Assembly: GCA_018822545.1 (NCBI GenBank)
Contig: JAHJKA010000051.1
Span: forward strand, 12,570 to 76,569
Source of the DNA: Pseudomonadota bacterium
GTDB taxonomy: Bacteria; Desulfobacterota; Desulfobulbia; Desulfobulbales; SURF-16
Direction of reading: 5' to 3'
DNA: 64,000 bases
The notes beneath the pieces are model-generated. The model did not search any database. It saw nothing but the letters and a program-made list of their open reading frames with translations, and was not told the origin of the DNA. The translations under genes and the position numbers were made by a program. Of this stretch, positions 11,668 to 34,998 are shown one piece after another (the stretch's first letter is position 1; each line of letters opens with the position of its first letter).

Positions 11668-12831
11668 CTAATAGCTTCGGTGACATTGTACACACAGGGC
11701 CTTTTTACCGCTGAGCTTCAGATTATAGCGATACTCAGTGCCCATGGGATCATGACAGGAAAGGCAGGTCATGCCCTGGCCAGTGCGGTGATCAACGATG
11801 TCACTGCCCACCGGATGACTGAACTCACCTTGAGTCTTGTGGCAGCGTGAACAAACAGCATTGCCATCGGCATTGAGCATCACCAGCCTATCTGAGCCAT
11901 GGGCATCATGGCAGTCCGTACATTTCTCGGTCTTCGGATGGGGATGGAGGCTGCGTCGGTTCCGGTCAAAGGTGTCGGTATGGCACGACCGGCAGAGCTG
12001 CTCATAGGGGGCCTTGAGAAGACCCGCTATGTCAGAGGCATGGGGGCTATGACACTCCACGCAGGTGCCATCCCCGGCAAACATATGGGTATGGGGAGCC
12101 AGCATCTGCTCTCTGACCCCGGCATGACAGCTCAGACATAACTCGCTGCCCTTGGCCTCTTTGCCATGACACGAGGTACAACCCTTTTTAAAGGGGGCAT
12201 GACTATTTGCCCGGATCAGGCCCTTGCCTTTGCCGCCATGGGGATTATGGCAGGAGAGACATTTGCCCGCCTTGCCAGGGAAACCCTTATGACCGGCCAA
12301 GGCATCCGGCTGGCTATGACACCCCAGACACAGCTTGTCGCTATCCTCCTTAAGGAGCTGGTAGTTGTCAGCGTTATGGGGCTGGTGACAGGCCACACAG
12401 TTCCCCTCGGCAAAGGGCTTATGTTTCCGCGCAAACTCATTTTTAGCAAGGGACTCATGGCAACTAAAACAGCTGTCGGCAATTGGCCTGCTCAACAAAC
12501 CCTTCTGGGCTGAGGCATGGGGGCTATGACACGCCAGACACTTCCCCTCGCGAACCGGCAGGTGCTGCACCCCTTGACCAAAGGCCTTTTTAGCCTCCCC
12601 ATGACAAGAATAGCAGAGATCGCCACCCTGCTTCTGGAGCAAACCCTTGAATTTGGCGACATGGGGATTATGGCACTGGGTGCATTTACCCTGGGCCACA
12701 GGCTCATGAACAATCTTGCCGCTGAATTCCTTTTTGGGATGACAGCTGATGCATCCCTGCGCAGCCAAGGCAGAATTACAAAATAAGACCAGGACGCCTG
12801 CTGCAAGCAGTATCGCAAAACGAATCTTCAT
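11668..12831 (-). CDS. 16-heme c-type cytochrome (c7/c3-type tandem modules)
   Basis: 16 CxxCH motifs in 387 aa with a regular ...H.PV..G.C..CH.PH... periodicity. Signal peptide ending ALAAQG. The start overlaps the upstream stop (ATGA). Confidence 0.92.
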   Translation of the reverse strand: MKIRFAILLAAGVLVLFCNSALAAQGCISCHPKKEFSGKIVHEPVAQGKCTQCHNPHVAKFKGLLQKQGGDLCYSCHGEAKKAFGQGVQHLPVREGKCLACHSPHASAQKGLLSRPIADSCFSCHESLAKNEFARKHKPFAEGNCVACHQPHNADNYQLLKEDSDKLCLGCHSQPDALAGHKGFPGKAGKCLSCHNPHGGKGKGLIRANSHAPFKKGCTSCHGKEAKGSELCLSCHAGVREQMLAPHTHMFAGDGTCVECHSPHASDIAGLLKAPYEQLCRSCHTDTFDRNRRSLHPHPKTEKCTDCHDAHGSDRLVMLNADGNAVCSRCHKTQGEFSHPVGSDIVDHRTGQGMTCLSCHDPMGTEYRYNLKLSGKKALCVQCHRSY

Positions 12832-23464: not shown

Positions 23465-24631
23465 TTATACATCATCCTTCGTGGTATGACATGCAAAGCA
23501 GCCACTGGTATTTGAGCCGGCATGGGCATCCATCCCAGAGTAATCCCAGCGCAGCAAGTCAGCGTTTGGTGAGCCATGGGCCCGATGGCAGGAGATACAG
23601 GTCACAACCGCATTTCCGTTAGCAGATCCGGCACCACCGATGTAGTCGATGGCTGTCACGATGGTTGCGCCACTCAAGGTGACCGAAGCAACCGGAGCCT
23701 CAAGATTGTAGGCGGTATAACCGGCATACTCCGAGGTTGTGGCCAAAGCACTCATGTCAAAATCCGTAGGGTGCCGTACCCATGGAGAACCAAAGGTGCT
23801 GCTGCTGATATTGCCTGCACCGTTATGGAACGCACCGTGACATTGCGCACAGAGTGAGCTGATTGTCGACGTGGTGTTCGTTGCCTCATCAGAACGGGCA
23901 ACCCCGGAGTAGAGGTTATGATCAGCAGTTGCTTTTGTGGCATCAGCTGTATACTCCCAGTCAGCATCCTCGATGCCGGTAATACCAGACAGCATACGGA
24001 AGGCATCGGACATATCAGTGGTGGAGCCGGCAACATAGCCGTTGGTGGCAGCATTGCCTGGGCCATGATGACCGCCGGCGATGGCGCCGAACTCATCCGT
24101 CGAAGTCGCTGCCCTGTCACCATGACAACCGGTGACACCGGCGCAGGTCAGAGCGGAAGGAAGAGGAACATTAGCGGCACCACCATTGCCAGGTGCAGAC
24201 GTAAGGGTGCTTTCAAGATTTGCAGAAGGAAGGCCAATTACATTATGCCCTGATGCATCGTTACCAGCATTGACCCAATAGAAGTTACCACCAGCCAAGG
24301 TATTCACACCAGCAGCACCGGCCACACCATAGGTGGGCGCAGCAGTACCCAATACAAAAGGCACCGTGCCACCAGCATTATCACCGGTATGACAACCCAC
24401 ACAACCATAACGAAGCAGCGCACCATTTGGCGTATTATCGGCAACAATTGCCGCACCAAAGGCGCCAGTGCTGGCCATAGCCGTACCATCCTGGCTATTA
24501 TGCATGGTATGACAGTTACCACACGGGCCGCTGACCTTGGCTGCTGCCAGTGACGGCAGGGCGAAGGCTGCACTGATGGCAATGACCGCTATCAGCTTGT
24601 TTTTGTCCACATATCTCTTCATCGTTTTCAT
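23465..24631 (-). CDS. OmcS-family hexaheme c-type cytochrome (paralogue 2), first gene of the train
   Basis: CGNCHTMHNS, AGGNFYWV, SGHNVIG, CAQCHGAFHN...WVRHPTD, TCISCHRAHGSPNAD, CFACHTTKD. Five CxxCH plus CAGVTGCH. Signal peptide ending SLAAA. Confidence 0.88.
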   Translation of the reverse strand: MKTMKRYVDKNKLIAVIAISAAFALPSLAAAKVSGPCGNCHTMHNSQDGTAMASTGAFGAAIVADNTPNGALLRYGCVGCHTGDNAGGTVPFVLGTAAPTYGVAGAAGVNTLAGGNFYWVNAGNDASGHNVIGLPSANLESTLTSAPGNGGAANVPLPSALTCAGVTGCHGDRAATSTDEFGAIAGGHHGPGNAATNGYVAGSTTDMSDAFRMLSGITGIEDADWEYTADATKATADHNLYSGVARSDEATNTTSTISSLCAQCHGAFHNGAGNISSSTFGSPWVRHPTDFDMSALATTSEYAGYTAYNLEAPVASVTLSGATIVTAIDYIGGAGSANGNAVVTCISCHRAHGSPNADLLRWDYSGMDAHAGSNTSGCFACHTTKDDV

Positions 24632-24880
24632 CCTCCCTAATTCGGTTTTCCTTACACTTTGGGGGAACCCTCTCCTCTCTCAAAAGAAGGTCTCTCGCCT
24701 CTAAATAGCAGCCGATTTCAGCGTGGCGGCTTCGACTGCCCATGCTCTGTCTCCGTTTTTTTCAGCCCCGGAAACAGCACCCTCATCTATTATGATATAA
24801 CACTCACCAGCAGAGGGCAACCCTCACACCTTCTTCTTCACTCCATAAATCCACAAAGAAGGCCGTATGTATTTTAAACA

Positions 24881-24895
24881 GCAAGGGCCATGCCA
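24881..24895 (-). promoter_or_regulatory. sigma54 (-24/-12) promoter
   Basis: The minus strand reads TGGCATGGCCCTTGC(TG). GG and GC are at consensus spacing against TGGCAC-N5-TTGCW. About 250 nt upstream of the ATG at 24631. Confidence 0.75.
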
Positions 24896-25088
24896 AAACA
24901 AGATTCCAAAAAAGAAAGTGAAACTAAACCCGCCAACCCAGACCGTTAGGGCTCTTCTCTCTCCCCAATGCCCGCACTCGAAAAACTCTGCGGCCATTCG
25001 CCTCACCAGAAACTGACCACCAGGGTGATCAACTCCGGCGCACACCCGTCTGCCGAGGACAAGAAAAGCCAAAAAAAAGAGCCCCATC

Positions 25089-25132
25089 GTCGAAAAATGG
25101 CGAGAAATGCACACTTTTCACCATTTTTCGAC
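25089..25132. promoter_or_regulatory. Perfect 12-bp inverted repeat, candidate activator site or terminator stem
   Basis: GTCGAAAAATGG (25089-25100), N20, CCATTTTTCGAC (25121-25132). About 200 bp upstream of the sigma54 promoter and about 100 bp downstream of the activator gene stop. Confidence 0.3.
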
Positions 25133-25236
25133 CCCCGACAGGACGTGGCACCAAAATTAGACGCGAGAAAACCTACACCACCCTCCGCCGCCAGCTTCTG
25201 ATTTCTATCCACCAGAAACTGGTCAAAAACCAAGGC

Positions 25237-26583
25237 TTATTGGCAGCGGTTGACAATATTATAGTCAGAAATTTTCTTGCGCAGGGTGGTGGGGGAAATC
25301 TCCAGCTGTTTAGCGGTCTGGGTGATATTCCAGCGCTGCTGATTCAAGACCATTTCCACGTGGCGTTTTTCCGCCTCAGCCAGGGTAACTGGCGCCACCT
25401 GCACTGGACCTTCATGATCGCGGTGGGATTGCTCAAGACATACCTCGGCAGCGGTGAGTACGCTGTCGGTGGCCAGGGCCACCGATCGCGTCAGAACATT
25501 TTCCAGCTCACGAACGTTCCCGGGCCAAGTGTGACTGATCAGTTTCTGCATGGCCTCATCATTAATCATCGGCCGGGAACATTGGAGCTGGCGGGCAATT
25601 TTTTTCAACAGTGAATCAACAAGTTGGGGAATATCACCCGGCCTGTCGCGCAACGGCGGCAGGTAGAGAGTGGAAACGGCAATACGATAAAAAAGATCTT
25701 TTCTGAACTTGCCTTCCTTGACCAGCTTTTCAAGATCCCAATGGGTGGCTGAGACAAAACGGGCCCGGAAAGGAATGGTCTCAAGGCCGCCCACCCGGAC
25801 AAACTCTCCCTCCTGGAGAACGCGCAGGAGCTTCCCTTGCAACCCTAAAGGCATGTCGCCGATCTCGTCAAAAAAAACCGTGCCATCCGCGGCATACTCT
25901 AATTTGCCTATTTTCAGGCGATCAGCCCCGGTAAACGCCCCTTTTTCATGGCCAAAGAACTCTGACTCAAGCAGGGTGGAAACCACGGCCGAGCAGTTGA
26001 TGTCAACAAAGGGCTTATCCGGGTCACGGGCATCATGAAGAATCCGGGCCGCAAGCTCCTTACCTGTGCCGCTTTCCCCCTGGATAAGGACAGTTACCCG
26101 GCTGCGTGAAAGCAGGCCTATTTTCTTATGGAGATCAATAATGTCGGGATGGGTACCTATCATGTTGGGGTAATGATCATCCACAACCAAGGACCCTATC
26201 TGGTCAGGCAAATTTACCTCGTGGCCGCGATGCACTTCCACCCGGGACAACATGGTATAGATGTCATCAAGCTCCAAAGGCTTGCGAAGATAATCAAAGG
26301 CGCCACTGCGCATGGCCTGCACAGCAATAAAATTGTCTGATTCACCCGTCATGATGACCACGGTGGGGTCGCAGGGCAACTCGACAATACTGGGCAAGGC
26401 CTCCAACCCGCTCTGGCCAGGAAGATTAATGTCGAGAAACACCACATCCGGCCGGAATTCTGCAGCCTCGCCAATGCCATTCTCAGCAGAACTTGCCAGA
26501 TGCACCTCATGGCCCTTCAGACCGAGGGGAACCTGGAGGGAGCGGCAAAGCGCCTGATCATCATCAACAATGAGAATTTTCAT
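25237..26583 (-). CDS. NtrC-family sigma54-dependent response regulator (REC-AAA+-Fis HTH)
   Basis: MKILIVDDD...VFLDINLPG (REC), GESGTGKE (Walker A), GAFTGA, C-terminal ITQTAKQLEISPTTLRKKI. Confidence 0.93.
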   Translation of the reverse strand: MKILIVDDDQALCRSLQVPLGLKGHEVHLASSAENGIGEAAEFRPDVVFLDINLPGQSGLEALPSIVELPCDPTVVIMTGESDNFIAVQAMRSGAFDYLRKPLELDDIYTMLSRVEVHRGHEVNLPDQIGSLVVDDHYPNMIGTHPDIIDLHKKIGLLSRSRVTVLIQGESGTGKELAARILHDARDPDKPFVDINCSAVVSTLLESEFFGHEKGAFTGADRLKIGKLEYAADGTVFFDEIGDMPLGLQGKLLRVLQEGEFVRVGGLETIPFRARFVSATHWDLEKLVKEGKFRKDLFYRIAVSTLYLPPLRDRPGDIPQLVDSLLKKIARQLQCSRPMINDEAMQKLISHTWPGNVRELENVLTRSVALATDSVLTAAEVCLEQSHRDHEGPVQVAPVTLAEAEKRHVEMVLNQQRWNITQTAKQLEISPTTLRKKISDYNIVNRCQ

Positions 26584-26924: not shown

Positions 26925-26945
26925 GCCGCCAATTTCAGTGGCGGC
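26925..26945. promoter_or_regulatory. 7-bp dyad, candidate upstream activator site
   Basis: GCCGCCA, N7, TGGCGGC. About 110 bp upstream of the 27054 sigma54 promoter. Confidence 0.25.
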
Positions 26946-27053: not shown

Positions 27054-27068
27054 TGGCCCAAAATTTGC
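27054..27068 (+). promoter_or_regulatory. sigma54 (-24/-12) promoter
   Basis: TGGCCCAAAATTTGC(TT), with GG and GC at consensus spacing. About 210 nt upstream of the ATG at 27279. Confidence 0.6.
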
Positions 27069-27278
27069 TTTTTTTAATGTAATTTTATACTCTTAAGAAC
27101 AAGGATCTTAATCTCGACAGCATCAGGAAGATCCAGAAATCTTTATGAAAAGGGCAAGATTGCAGCAAAGAATTGTTAACCGGCATGGTCCTACCATCAG
27201 TTTGCCAAAGAAATAACAGCGACTGTCAAAGACACGCCAGCCTCAAGATTGACCGGTACTCAACGAAGGGATGATTCT

Positions 27279-33057: not shown

Positions 33058-34998
33058 ATGCCCTGTGACAATTTAAAATCTAAAATAGCCAATATCCTCA
33101 GCCGCAGTGGCAGCATTCGCAGCAAGGTGTGGACCTGCGTGCTTATAGCCCTCGTCGGTTACTTTATTGCAACCTTGTCGAGCTTCTACTCCAACAGCCG
33201 TCATGCCACCCGTCTTACGCATTTGCAGAAAATAGAAATGCCTCTGGCCCTGCTCAGCGACCAGAGCCTGCAGGCCTATAAAGACCAGATAGAAAAATAT
33301 GAGAACGCCTTCCTCACCGGCGAGGCTGAACAGGCCATCCAGGGCAATCGTCTCAGCGGCCACATTGTCGAGTATTTTGAAAAAATGCAGGAAATGGCAA
33401 CCAACGACCAGGTCTTTGACCAGGAAAAATATGCCATCGCCAAACTACTGGACAACTATAATGAATTTTCCGACCTGGCCTCGGAAGTATACCTAAGCAC
33501 CCAGGCCATTGAAACATCCATTGATCTGCAGAAAAAAATCCAGGTCCTGGGGAGCATGCAGACTGACATCCTCAACGATCTTCGCCACCTAGCACAACAT
33601 TTCACCAAAAAAGTTGAGGATGAACTCCAAGAACAGCGGCGAAGCGCCCAGATCAACACCCTCTTTCTCGGCGTCCTCTTCGTGGTGGTGCTGGTCACTG
33701 CCATTTTAATCAGCCATTGTTTTGCCAGCCAGCAGCTCATCGAACCTCTGGCCAAGATCCAGACCATGGTCAAGCTCTTTGCCAAAGGCGAGGAGATTTA
33801 CCGCCCCCAACTGGGCAGCGACAAGGATGAGATCAGCAACCTGGCCTTCTCTTTCTGGGAGATGACCCAAGACCTCAAAGACTCCATGGTCTCCCGTGAT
33901 TATGTCGACAGTATTATCAAAAATATGTCCGGCTGCCTCATGGTCCTTACCCCTGGTCTGCAACTCTCGAAGATCAACACCAAGACCTCGTTTCTTCTCG
34001 ACCGCAGTGAAGACCAGCTCCTCGGCCTCAAGGTCACCGAACTCGTCTGTGATGACATGCTGTCGCTCTTTCAAGACAAGGCCATCAAACTCCTGCACAG
34101 GGGAGAGGATGTCACCAACCTGGAAATATGCCTGACAAAAAGAGATGGTAGCAAGATTCCCGTGCTCTTTTCCGGATCGGTGATGCGCAACTCCGACAAT
34201 GTCATTATCGCCCTGATCTGCGTGACCAATGATATTACCGAGCGTAAAAAAACAGAACAGGTTCTGCGCAAAAATGAAATCGAACGGGCCCTGGCCCAAA
34301 GCGCTTCCTTGGCACGGATCGGTGAATTGACCTCGAGCATTGCCCACGAGATGCGCAATCCGCTCTCCTCCATCAAAATGACCATTAAAACCATCGCCCA
34401 GGAACTTGGCACTACGAACCCCACCTTCCATGAACTGGCTACCATTGCCCAGGATCAGTCAAAACGCTTAGAAACCATGCTCAACGATCTGCTGAGCTAC
34501 GGCAAACCCCTCACCCCCAAAGTGGAACGCACCACCTTCCACGAGCTCCTTACCGAGACATTTATTGCCGTGGCCCCAGAGAAAGAGGACAAAAGCGTTA
34601 GCGTGGAGATTACCGACAATCTCAAGGAGATACCCCTTAAGGTGGACAAGGAACTCATGATCCGTGCCCTGTCCAACCTGGCCTTAAACGCTATTCAATG
34701 GTCACCGGCGCGCAGCACCATCTATATAGCAAGCCGTCTCATTTCCATTGTGGGCTCACCCGACCAGGCCATCATCGAGGTGCGCGACAGCGGCCCGGGC
34801 TTAGACAGCAAGAAGAGCCACCGCCTCTTTCAGCCTTTCATGACCACCAGACCTGGCGGTACCGGTCTCGGCCTTGCCAATGTCCGCAAGATTGTCGAAT
34901 ATCACGGCGGCACCGTAAGCGGTTGCAACTATGGCAGCGGCGGCGCCCTGTTTACCATCACCATCCCCATTGTTTCCCCCCATCTCTCCCTTTCCTGA
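33058..34998 (+). CDS. Membrane sensor histidine kinase (TM-periplasmic helical domain-TM-HAMP-PAS-HisKA-HATPase)
   Basis: SIAHEMRNPLSSI (H-box), NLALNAIQW (N-box), DSGPGL, GTGLGLA. The N-terminal ~380 aa are paralogous to the preceding cyclase. Confidence 0.9.
   Translation: MPCDNLKSKIANILSRSGSIRSKVWTCVLIALVGYFIATLSSFYSNSRHATRLTHLQKIEMPLALLSDQSLQAYKDQIEKYENAFLTGEAEQAIQGNRLSGHIVEYFEKMQEMATNDQVFDQEKYAIAKLLDNYNEFSDLASEVYLSTQAIETSIDLQKKIQVLGSMQTDILNDLRHLAQHFTKKVEDELQEQRRSAQINTLFLGVLFVVVLVTAILISHCFASQQLIEPLAKIQTMVKLFAKGEEIYRPQLGSDKDEISNLAFSFWEMTQDLKDSMVSRDYVDSIIKNMSGCLMVLTPGLQLSKINTKTSFLLDRSEDQLLGLKVTELVCDDMLSLFQDKAIKLLHRGEDVTNLEICLTKRDGSKIPVLFSGSVMRNSDNVIIALICVTNDITERKKTEQVLRKNEIERALAQSASLARIGELTSSIAHEMRNPLSSIKMTIKTIAQELGTTNPTFHELATIAQDQSKRLETMLNDLLSYGKPLTPKVERTTFHELLTETFIAVAPEKEDKSVSVEITDNLKEIPLKVDKELMIRALSNLALNAIQWSPARSTIYIASRLISIVGSPDQAIIEVRDSGPGLDSKKSHRLFQPFMTTRPGGTGLGLANVRKIVEYHGGTVSGCNYGSGGALFTITIPIVSPHLSLS

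Follow-up and report, generated by a model that had tools for sequence, protein, structure and literature searches.

How an OmcS-like cytochrome might be switched on outside Geobacter is the question raised by a 64,000-nucleotide stretch of DNA (hereafter the window) from a bacterium of the order Desulfobulbales (positions 12,570 to 76,569 of contig JAHJKA010000051.1, assembly GCA_018822545.1), in which the gene of an OmcS-like hexahaem cytochrome is preceded on the minus strand by a near-consensus sigma-54 promoter motif. The explanation favoured here, to which a rough probability of 0.8 is given, combines a sigma-54 promoter, an adjacent activator gene and a structured leader. Its starting elements are the following.

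24895–24880, minus strand: putative sigma-54 promoter TGGCATGGCCCTTGCT, with the GG of the -24 element at 24894–24893 and the GC of the -12 element at 24882–24881.
24867–24871, minus strand: predicted transcription start, near 24869, about 12 nt 3' of the -12 C according to standard sigma-54 promoter geometry.
23465–24622, minus strand: OmcS-like hexahaem cytochrome gene, read from its second ATG (385 aa), with five CXXCH motifs and one invariant CX5CH.

The initial annotation of the window had read a -24/-12 motif, TGGCATGGCCCTTGCTG, on the minus strand at 24895–24879, and the motif is present as claimed. The surrounding minus strand reads TGTTTTGGCATGGCCCTTGCTGTTTAAAAT, the spacing between the GG and GC elements of TGGCATGGCCCTTGCT is canonical for sigma-54, and the sole deviation from TGGCAC-N5-TTGCW is a change of C6 to T. 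The evidence that carries the assignment comes from a comparison of orthologous loci, which were drawn from seven same-genus genomes, from contigs encoding close homologues, and from one match in a genome collection; two further contigs, P0007 and P0010, end before the upstream region. Wherever the contig suffices, synteny is constant, with a divergent AhpC/TPR gene, the activator gene, an intergenic region of 370–640 nt, the OmcS-like gene, a multihaem cytochrome gene and the gene of a barrel protein of about 690 aa. Within the intergenic region, GGCA[C/T]G-N4-TTGCT is invariant in 12/12 aligned loci and also in L073, that is in 13/13 orthologous loci, and its flanks have diverged. Most close relatives carry CGGCAT or CGGCAC at the -24 element, and the exact consensus TGGCACG-N4-TTGCT is found in the three most distant loci (L070, L071 and L073), whose cytochromes are about 51–52% identical to that of the window where measured, the activator of L073 being 76% identical.

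Aligned over the region that spans the upstream site and the promoter, 12 loci share two sharp islands of conservation, the block TGGTCAGTTTCTGGTGAGGCGAATGGTCGCAG and the -24/-12 element, separated by an unconserved spacer of about 85 nt. The features of this upstream region in the window are as follows.

24988–25019, minus strand: proximal candidate upstream activating sequence TGGTCAGTTTCTGGTGAGGCGAATGGCCGCAG, starting 120 bp upstream of the -24 element and forming one of the two islands of conservation in the 12-locus alignment.
25191–25224, minus strand: distal pair of candidate sites for the activator, GACCAGTTTCTGGTGGATAGAAATCAGAAGCTGG, in which about 21 bp separate two CAG-N3-CTG palindromes and at which binding is presumed.
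24896–24918, minus strand: T-rich tract CTTTCTTTTTTGGAATCTTGTTT, abutting the -24 element on its upstream side.

The proximal block is palindromic (TGGTCAGTTTCTGGTGAGGCGAATGG.CGCAG; CAGTTTCTGG) and lies 120–123 bp upstream of the -24 element in nine loci; a variant, CAGCTTCTG, aligns at the same position in G005. In the three distant loci the palindrome reads CAGTAACTG or CAGTTACTG and its distance to the -24 element is 108–110 bp (L070 and L071) or 111 bp (L073), which is one helical turn less, so that the same face of the helix is kept. A promoter with a phased upstream block of this kind has the appearance of an enhancer-dependent promoter with its upstream activating sequence, and it is mainly this comparative conservation, together with the spacing of promoter and upstream site, that makes a functional sigma-54 promoter at 24895–24880 very likely. 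The distal pair lies directly behind the stop codon of the activator gene, 206–218 bp upstream of the proximal site, and is found in the same place in seven loci. Two other upstream sequences were considered and rejected: an AT-rich palindrome at 25089–25132, tried as an upstream activating sequence, is not conserved in relatives, and contig C90 carries a near-copy of the proximal site that falls within an efflux-pump gene and is due to chance. The AT-rich palindrome itself, located between the distal and proximal sites, has 21-nt arms (GTCGAAAAATGG...CCATTTTTCGAC) followed by a run of eight T residues, and may be the terminator of the activator gene or a strain-specific feature.

The protein that would act at these sites is probably encoded next door.

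25237–26583, minus strand: response-regulator-type sigma-54 activator (enhancer-binding protein) of 448 aa, composed according to Pfam of REC, AAA+ Sigma54_activat, AAA lid and Fis-type HTH (HTH_8) domains.

The Sigma54_activat match has an E value of 3.9e-59, and the protein carries the GAFTGA motif at residue 215, a Walker A motif (GESGTGKE) at residue 169, and the receiver aspartate, residue 51, in the sequence FLDINLP. Its gene is directly upstream of and co-oriented with the OmcS-like gene wherever the contig reaches (L052, L053, L054, L056, L058, L059, L071, L073, G003, G005 and G007), and from this conserved adjacency it is probably the cognate activator of the promoter. The claim that sigma-54 control would tie the cytochrome to an enhancer-binding activator has become very probable in the light of the -24/-12 element kept in 13 loci, the phased upstream site, the adjacent activator with its GAFTGA motif, and the presence of rpoN. 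The same control had also been called nitrogen-type, and this part does not stand: the activator scores 385.6 against an NtrC equivalog cut-off of 558.6 (TIGR01818) and 321.3 against 620 (PRK10923), and as it falls below every NCBIfam equivalog cut-off, it is not NtrC, AtoC or ZraR proper. It is a generic response regulator of the NtrC family; the genome encodes about 30 sigma-54 activators, and nothing links this one to nitrogen.

The genome in question is a metagenome-assembled genome of 3.34 Mb in 94 contigs (85% complete), and its rpoN is recognizable on contig C69 as a 496-aa open frame with a Sigma54_DBD match (E = 4.4e-64). Genome-wide, TGGCAY-N5-TTGCW occurs 23 times, as compared with about six occurrences expected from base composition by our own arithmetic. 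When open reading frames (ORFs) of 120 aa or more are crudely masked, 15 of the 23 matches are intergenic, each followed by an ORF on the same strand 24–411 nt downstream, and many of the genome-wide matches adjoin one of the approximately 30 sigma-54 activator genes. Given this excess, the intergenic placement and the nearby activators, the motif is a good predictor of sigma-54 promoters in this organism. The window promoter differs from the genome's other intergenic matches in its distance to the ORF, which is 264 nt as compared with a median of about 90 nt. Elsewhere in the genome, at C89:51919 on the plus strand, the near-identical promoter TGGCATGCCCCTTGCT stands directly behind another sigma-54 activator gene, with a leader of about 240 nt before the gene of a glycosyltransferase-like membrane protein; long leaders behind sigma-54 promoters therefore recur in this genome.

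What would be transcribed ahead of the cytochrome gene is a long 5' untranslated region (UTR), in which the following elements are predicted.

24623–24869, minus strand: predicted 5' untranslated leader of about 247 nt, from the predicted transcription start to the second ATG.
24829–24862, minus strand: 5'-proximal hairpin P0, CCUUCUU ... AAGAAGG, with a loop carrying GUGGAU..UGGAGUG.
24744–24780, minus strand: hairpin H1, GUGCUGUUUCC-loop-GGAGACAGAGC.
24707–24740, minus strand: hairpin H2, GGCAGUCGA and UCGGCUGCU around the loop AGCCGCCACGCUGAAA, a variable stem with a conserved 16-nt loop.
24666–24692, minus strand: hairpin H3, GACCUUCUUUU-GAGAG-AGGAGAGGGUU, a pyrimidine arm facing a purine arm.
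24645–24657, minus strand: GGA box GUGUAAGGAAAAC, which reads GCAAGGAA in most relatives.
24632–24637, minus strand: Shine-Dalgarno sequence GGGAGG, invariant in the eight long leaders and present also in two short leaders.

The 3' end of the leader depends on the choice of start codon. The full ORF (23465–24631, 388 aa) begins with an ATG at 24631, which GGGAGG abuts; the second ATG, at 24622, lies 9 nt behind the Shine-Dalgarno sequence. As the first ATG is replaced by ATA or ATT in three relatives (L058, G005 and L054), the second is the conserved and likely start. The leader of about 240 nt proposed in the initial annotation is borne out as a long leader, with about 247 nt to the second ATG; its end had been placed at 24632, which is 9 nt off. 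Among the orthologous loci, homologous long leaders of 240–260 nt occur in eight, unrelated short leaders of about 165 nt in two, and leaders of about 140 nt in three; from the predicted starts, a long 5' UTR appears to be a constant of the locus, and its sequence does not. In BLAST searches against 401 genomes of the order, true homologues of the leader are confined to the same genus; the only others are in close metagenomic relatives. About 16 short high-identity matches to leader positions 118–175 lie in unrelated coding contexts and are due to chance, and two others are other sigma-54 promoters.

The 9-bp stem described earlier is present: GCTGTTTCCG (24778–24769) pairs with CGGAGACAG (24755–24747) with one G.U pair, and the stem is contained in H1. 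The structure that RNAalifold predicts for the eight long leaders has 90.3% of its cells paired, as compared with 50–59% in slid controls, and 12 pairs have changed on both sides, a count that none of 500 shuffles reached. H1 (helix 3) has 11 pairs, six of which have changed on both sides, with 89.8% of cells paired; H2 (helix 4) has nine pairs, four changed on both sides, with 91.5% of cells paired and the loop core CCGCC in 8/8 leaders. In H3 (helix 6), which comprises 11 pairs, 96.6% of cells are paired; since its changes are mostly one-sided, its evidence of covariation is weak. For the 5' end, RNAalifold had paired the CCUUCUU block with the Shine-Dalgarno sequence; no pair in this helix has changed on both sides, and the helix is disrupted in L052 and L053. 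When the first 56 nt are folded by minimum free energy, 6/8 leaders form a 5' hairpin; in exactly these two loci the local hairpin is kept and built from different sequence, so that the local hairpin is preferred. Its maintenance from divergent sequence suggests that the DNA just 3' of the sigma-54 element is transcribed.

Among the sequence boxes, AAGGAA(A/U)AA is kept in both long and short leaders, 15–20 nt before GGGAGG. In the long leaders the box is near-invariant as AAGGAAAA (CAGGAAAA in L052), it reads AAGGAAUAA in two short leaders, and in L071 the box GCAAGGAG is the ribosome-binding site itself. A conserved upstream ORF or leader peptide was rejected because the reading frames differ among the leaders, and neither a scan nor inspection of the leader gave a terminator-like hairpin with a U run.

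Several observations weigh against the explanation set out above and are taken together here. In the 64-kb window, TGGCAY-N5-TTGCW has one match where 0.37 would be expected, and 34 of 100 shuffles have at least one; judged inside the window, the motif by itself falls short of significance, and the case for a promoter therefore rests on conservation and context. Most close relatives have C instead of T at motif position 1, and the window has T instead of C at position 6. The IHF consensus has no match at 8/9 or better in the spacers between upstream site and promoter of the 12 loci. The eight related sequences that yielded the leader structure were also the ones used to test it, and the fold energy of the whole leader is unremarkable (z = -1.6). 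The CsrA mechanism proposed below draws on GGA motifs and the presence of the gene, and nothing else. Finally, a promoter scan finds a sigma-70-like element inside the leader with a 9/12 match, so that transcription may be partly independent of sigma-54 and the leader shorter than predicted.

The first of these observations would allow the -24/-12 match to be a chance occurrence in an intergenic region of mixed AT and GC content, with no promoter function, and one match in 64 kb is within expectation on such a view. This is hardly credible for an element that is invariant in 13 loci with diverged flanks, keeps a phased distance to a second conserved block, and is adjoined by the gene of a sigma-54 activator. 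As to IHF, T residues make up a fraction of 0.47–0.77 of the final 30 nt of the spacer in 8/8 long-leader loci, and the T-rich tract may provide an intrinsic bend that substitutes for an IHF site.

The sigma-70-like element bears on a second alternative, in which the operon would be driven mainly by a sigma-70 promoter inside the leader, the real leader would be about 160 nt, and the sigma-54 element would be auxiliary, conditional or vestigial.

24792–24820, minus strand: sigma-70-like element TTGCCC-17-TATCAT.

The block TTGCCC...GAGGGTGAGGG is conserved, and at the aligned position, where relatives have extended -10 boxes of the form TGnTATAAT, a perfect TGTTATAAT is present in G004 and L056 and TGCTATTAT or TGCTATATT in L053 and L058. 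On the other hand, the -10 of the window itself is poor (TATCAT, or TATATC), and the extended -10 (TGnTAnnnT) occurs in only 4/8 long leaders and in none of the short-leader loci, as compared with 13/13 for the -24/-12 element; being missing from half of the long and all of the short leaders, the sigma-70 element cannot be the conserved driver. The segment between the two promoter elements is, moreover, the one that folds as the 5' hairpin in six of the eight leaders, two of them from different sequence, as would be expected of transcribed DNA. A mainly sigma-70-driven operon is accordingly regarded as improbable. The two kinds of promoter would not be mutually exclusive, and some members may plausibly have a second promoter, from which the leader would be about 160 nt long; the element may be such a promoter or a part of the RNA.

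If the sigma-54 promoter is taken as the driver, what the leader does has to be asked separately. A GEMM-I riboswitch had been looked for at the outset and judged absent, and an Rfam scan of 24500–25350 agrees: even at a permissive threshold (E <= 10) it finds no riboswitch, and the only hits, MIR8008 (E = 1.7) and SpR20 (E = 5.3), are at chance level, so that no family is matched. The leader resembles the GEMM-I (c-di-GMP-I/cGAMP) riboswitches that stand before Geobacter cytochrome genes in being a long structured leader before the gene of an extracellular electron-transfer cytochrome, but it has neither an Rfam match nor their shared core and is not a member. A ligand-sensing riboswitch of an undescribed class, responding for example to a cyclic dinucleotide, would be compatible with the long conserved leader, the covarying hairpins, the conserved 16-nt loop of H2, and the diguanylate cyclase (GGDEF) gene in the neighbouring operon. 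It is nevertheless very improbable, as no Rfam family is matched even at E <= 10, and a covariance model of the H2–H3–GGA–Shine-Dalgarno region, run over the family's 40 genomes, picks out a single copy per genome, and this only in genus g1. A metagenome pattern scan for the leader core likewise returned only the already known L052 contig; L054, L059, L070 and L071 lack H1–H3 and keep the promoter, which means that the fold is not essential to the locus; and neither a multi-helix junction nor a terminator/anti-terminator pair is evident. Two marginal covariance matches, L067 (G009:C36:31122-31230) and L068 (G008:C50:54-173), were rejected as an unrelated hairpin element with no downstream ORF. 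This element, a conserved hairpin (AAAGAAAGGCCGTYTYTGGGGGRACARAGACGGCC) with GGAG-rich sequence behind it, could be a terminator or else a small repeat.

The leader is most likely a lineage-specific structured 5' UTR that serves mRNA stability and/or translation initiation; in the most economical reading, the 5' hairpin would protect the mRNA and the 3' end would modulate the access of ribosomes. The most concrete mechanism would be the binding of CsrA at the AAGGAA box and the Shine-Dalgarno sequence, a tentative idea to be taken as a lead and not as a result. The genome has a csrA gene, and the leader carries GGA motifs at three places: the 5'-hairpin loop, the AAGGAA box and the Shine-Dalgarno sequence. 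In leaders controlled by CsrA/RsmA, GGA motifs are placed in loops, with one of them over the Shine-Dalgarno sequence; the window leader is similar in its invariant AAGGAA about 15 nt upstream of GGGAGG, its GGA motifs in the 5'-hairpin loop and the presence of csrA, but differs in that the AAGGAA box is not clearly presented in a loop, and in L071 it is the ribosome-binding site itself. In G. sulfurreducens, deletion of csrA alters the expression of omcS/omcT, and the CsrA motif proposed there, VVAAGGAGRV, is one that the AAGGAA box resembles (PMC11934962). A more elaborate possibility, put forward with considerable doubt, is that the leader is an undescribed cis-regulatory RNA of Desulfurivibrionaceae. 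With CsrA, a small RNA or a ligand as its effector, it would gate translation or stability and so supplement the sigma-54 switch by a post-transcriptional checkpoint; the same activator would in addition co-regulate a second locus, on contig C39, through a shared palindrome.

The C39 locus is part of the same genome. The palindrome CAGTTTCTGG occurs there twice, 197 bp apart (C39:15821-16143), before two OmcS-like paralogues (C39:16395-18825), and these copies appear to tie the palindrome to OmcS-like genes a second time. A promoter-like TAGCATGACTTTTGCA stands 110 bp downstream of the proximal copy; because its -24 element has AG instead of GG, its function as a promoter is doubtful. The divergent neighbour is adenylosuccinate-lyase-like, and no activator gene is nearby. 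The locus may be a second target of the window's activator, or its promoter may have decayed.

Taking together the sigma-54 promoter, the adjacent activator and the structured leader, a course of events may be proposed for the window. Sigma-54 RNA polymerase would bind the -24 GG and -12 GC as a closed complex, and the activator (25237–26583) would be phosphorylated by some kinase, possibly the following one.

33058–34998, plus strand: PAS histidine kinase (HisKA, HATPase_c and PAS in Pfam) in the divergent neighbouring operon, possibly the partner of the activator, with which it is paired by proximity only.

The phosphorylated activator would then bind the palindromic block at 24988–25019, and perhaps also the distal pair at 25191–25224, and loop to the promoter over the T-rich, unconserved spacer, where its GAFTGA loop and ATP hydrolysis would open the complex. 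Transcription would start near 24869, at the head of a long minus-strand operon that includes the OmcS-like cytochrome, multihaem cytochromes, an MtrB/PioB-like barrel, a PPIase and NHL proteins. The leader of about 247 nt in front of it would consist of the 5' hairpin, H1–H3, the AAGGAA box and the Shine-Dalgarno sequence, and would not be a known riboswitch.

The cytochrome at the head of the operon had been called OmcS-like, and the label is sustained at the level of profiles, where a profile of 68 homologues matches OmcS (6EF8/6NEF) with E = 1.2e-24, profile positions 34–343 aligning to OmcS 7–348. A PDB search with the single cytochrome sequence found no OmcS match and only OmcZ (E = 0.016), and a Foldseek search with its AlphaFold model (pLDDT 63, no haems) found no match. 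An N-terminal CHTMHNS block is invariant in the 68 homologues and aligns to CHTMHNS in OmcS. The second histidine of the OmcS CxxCHTMH block bridges subunits in the filament. The label OmcS-like holds as one of remote homology, from which the name nanowire for the cytochrome would follow by analogy. In place of the third CXXCH of OmcS, all 68 homologues have an invariant CX5CH (24121–24144; CAGVTGCH, C163...C169-H170), an atypical spacing for haem attachment. The Geobacter frame in which the gene had been discussed is to be replaced, as the closest named relatives, judged by the organisms given as sources of the homologues and of the nearest activator locus, are Desulfurivibrionaceae / Desulfobulbales; the organism is placed in the Desulfurivibrionaceae.

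Downstream on the minus strand, the co-directional cluster continues from the 388-aa cytochrome with a 622-aa multihaem cytochrome, a 698-aa protein, proteins of 266 aa and 505 aa that have no assigned family, and a PPIase; after these come another two multihaem cytochromes and an NHL protein, then a second copy of the OmcS-like gene and additional genes. The 698-aa protein has no family match here, and its relatives give a weak match to MtrB_PioB. The two OmcS-like copies of the cluster are about 14 genes apart. In G004, the leader homologue precedes a copy (C16:22917-24318) that is 50% identical to the window protein, and a second copy downstream (C16:9090-10184) is 63% identical, a pattern which suggests that the cluster's two OmcS-like paralogues have undergone exchange or conversion.

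Upstream of the activator, the divergent operon encodes an AhpC/TPR protein, a multihaem cytochrome, an NHL protein, a GGDEF cyclase and the PAS histidine kinase. A second sigma-54-like element precedes it.

27054–27069, plus strand: sigma-54-like element TGGCCCAAAATTTGCT, 195 nt before the AhpC/TPR–cytochrome–NHL–GGDEF–kinase operon.

This element is kept in 4/6 orthologous loci, at 200–235 nt from the operon, without the CAGTTTCTG palindrome, and is probably served by another activator; an inverted repeat nearby (GCCGCCA-N7-TGGCGGC, 26925–26945) is not conserved. Beyond the genus, an activator gene lies beside an OmcS-like gene in at least two further genera of the order, in L028 (with TGGCATAGCGATTGCT at -155) and in L015. 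The next-closest activator, with 50% identity, is that of L074 (CAZWZW010000067.1, labelled Verrucomicrobiota). Behind it lies an insert of about 0.9 kb, bordered by a repeat of about 38 nt (GGTAAATCCA.ATTAACGATCGT.AAT.TGAATTTACC), with a CAGTTTCTG site just past the insert, which may be a mobile element in the regulatory region; the contig may also be mis-binned.

Sigma-54 promoters with adjacent NtrC-family activators are textbook examples of bacterial regulation. With the classical ones, such as glnAp2 with NtrC (consensus mrNrYTGGCACG-N4-TTGCWNNw), the window locus shares the GG/GC spacing, a dyad about 110–120 bp upstream, the adjacent activator of REC-AAA+(GAFTGA)-Fis-HTH type, and rpoN; it differs in that its activator is no NtrC, AtoC or ZraR equivalog, that no IHF site was found, and that its leader is unusually long.

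A closer parallel is offered by G. sulfurreducens, for which the RpoN consensus TTGGCACGGTTTTTGCT has been described (PMC2725144). In this organism, omcS (GSU2504) adjoins GSU2506, a sigma-54-dependent response regulator, and GSU2507, a histidine kinase (PMC10599522), and omcS is up 2.6-fold when RpoN is overexpressed; an RpoN promoter has been predicted for the GSU2506 operon, and none is listed for GSU2504 (PMC2725144 supplement). Deletion of GSU2507 changed the expression of omcB and pilA (PMC11077965). The G. sulfurreducens locus (omcS-omcT with companion/oet genes) is similar to that of the window in that the OmcS-family gene comes first, followed by multihaem cytochromes, NHL, PPIase and barrel proteins, with a sigma-54 activator nearby (PMC10599522; PMC10553843). 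In contrast, GSU2506 has a PAS domain and an adjacent kinase, whereas the activator of the window is REC-only and abuts its target promoter, and the pair of promoter and upstream activating sequence is explicit and conserved in the window locus; the two activators are compared here by description.

Murali et al. (2023, PMC10553843) also describe OmcS-like genes with oetABI conduits, from Desulfobulbia as well as from syntrophic sulfate reducers, and an outer-membrane cytochrome cluster of D. ferrophilus IS5 is induced by electron-donor starvation (Deng et al. 2018, PMC5815863). The window cluster resembles the oetABI 'DIET' cassette and the D. ferrophilus IS5 cluster in its OmcS-like extracellular cytochromes with a porin–cytochrome conduit, its two OmcS-like copies about 14 genes apart, and its bacterial class, a likeness in the kind of cluster; the known clusters are described as regulated, by electron-donor limitation. 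A promoter or regulator is described in neither paper, and the word sigma is absent from the text of PMC10553843.

OmcS-type filaments and porin–cytochrome conduits are central to extracellular and interspecies electron transfer, and have been reported in Desulfobulbia and in the sulfate-reducing partners of methane-oxidising archaea (PMC10553843). How OmcS-type clusters are switched on outside Geobacter is essentially undescribed. The locus provides a testable wiring diagram that consists of a promoter, a phased candidate activator site, an activator gene and a candidate kinase, and is conserved in a genus-level clade of Desulfurivibrionaceae. The practical gain is modest but real: the activator and its site could be used for finding the inducing signal, and the leader may be a point at which cytochrome output is controlled post-transcriptionally. 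Overall, the regulatory architecture is a known one, of which the locus is a new and well-defined example in an operon of current interest; and as a sigma-54 activator also stands next to omcS in G. sulfurreducens, there is a hint that enhancer-dependent control of OmcS-family clusters may be old and recurrent.

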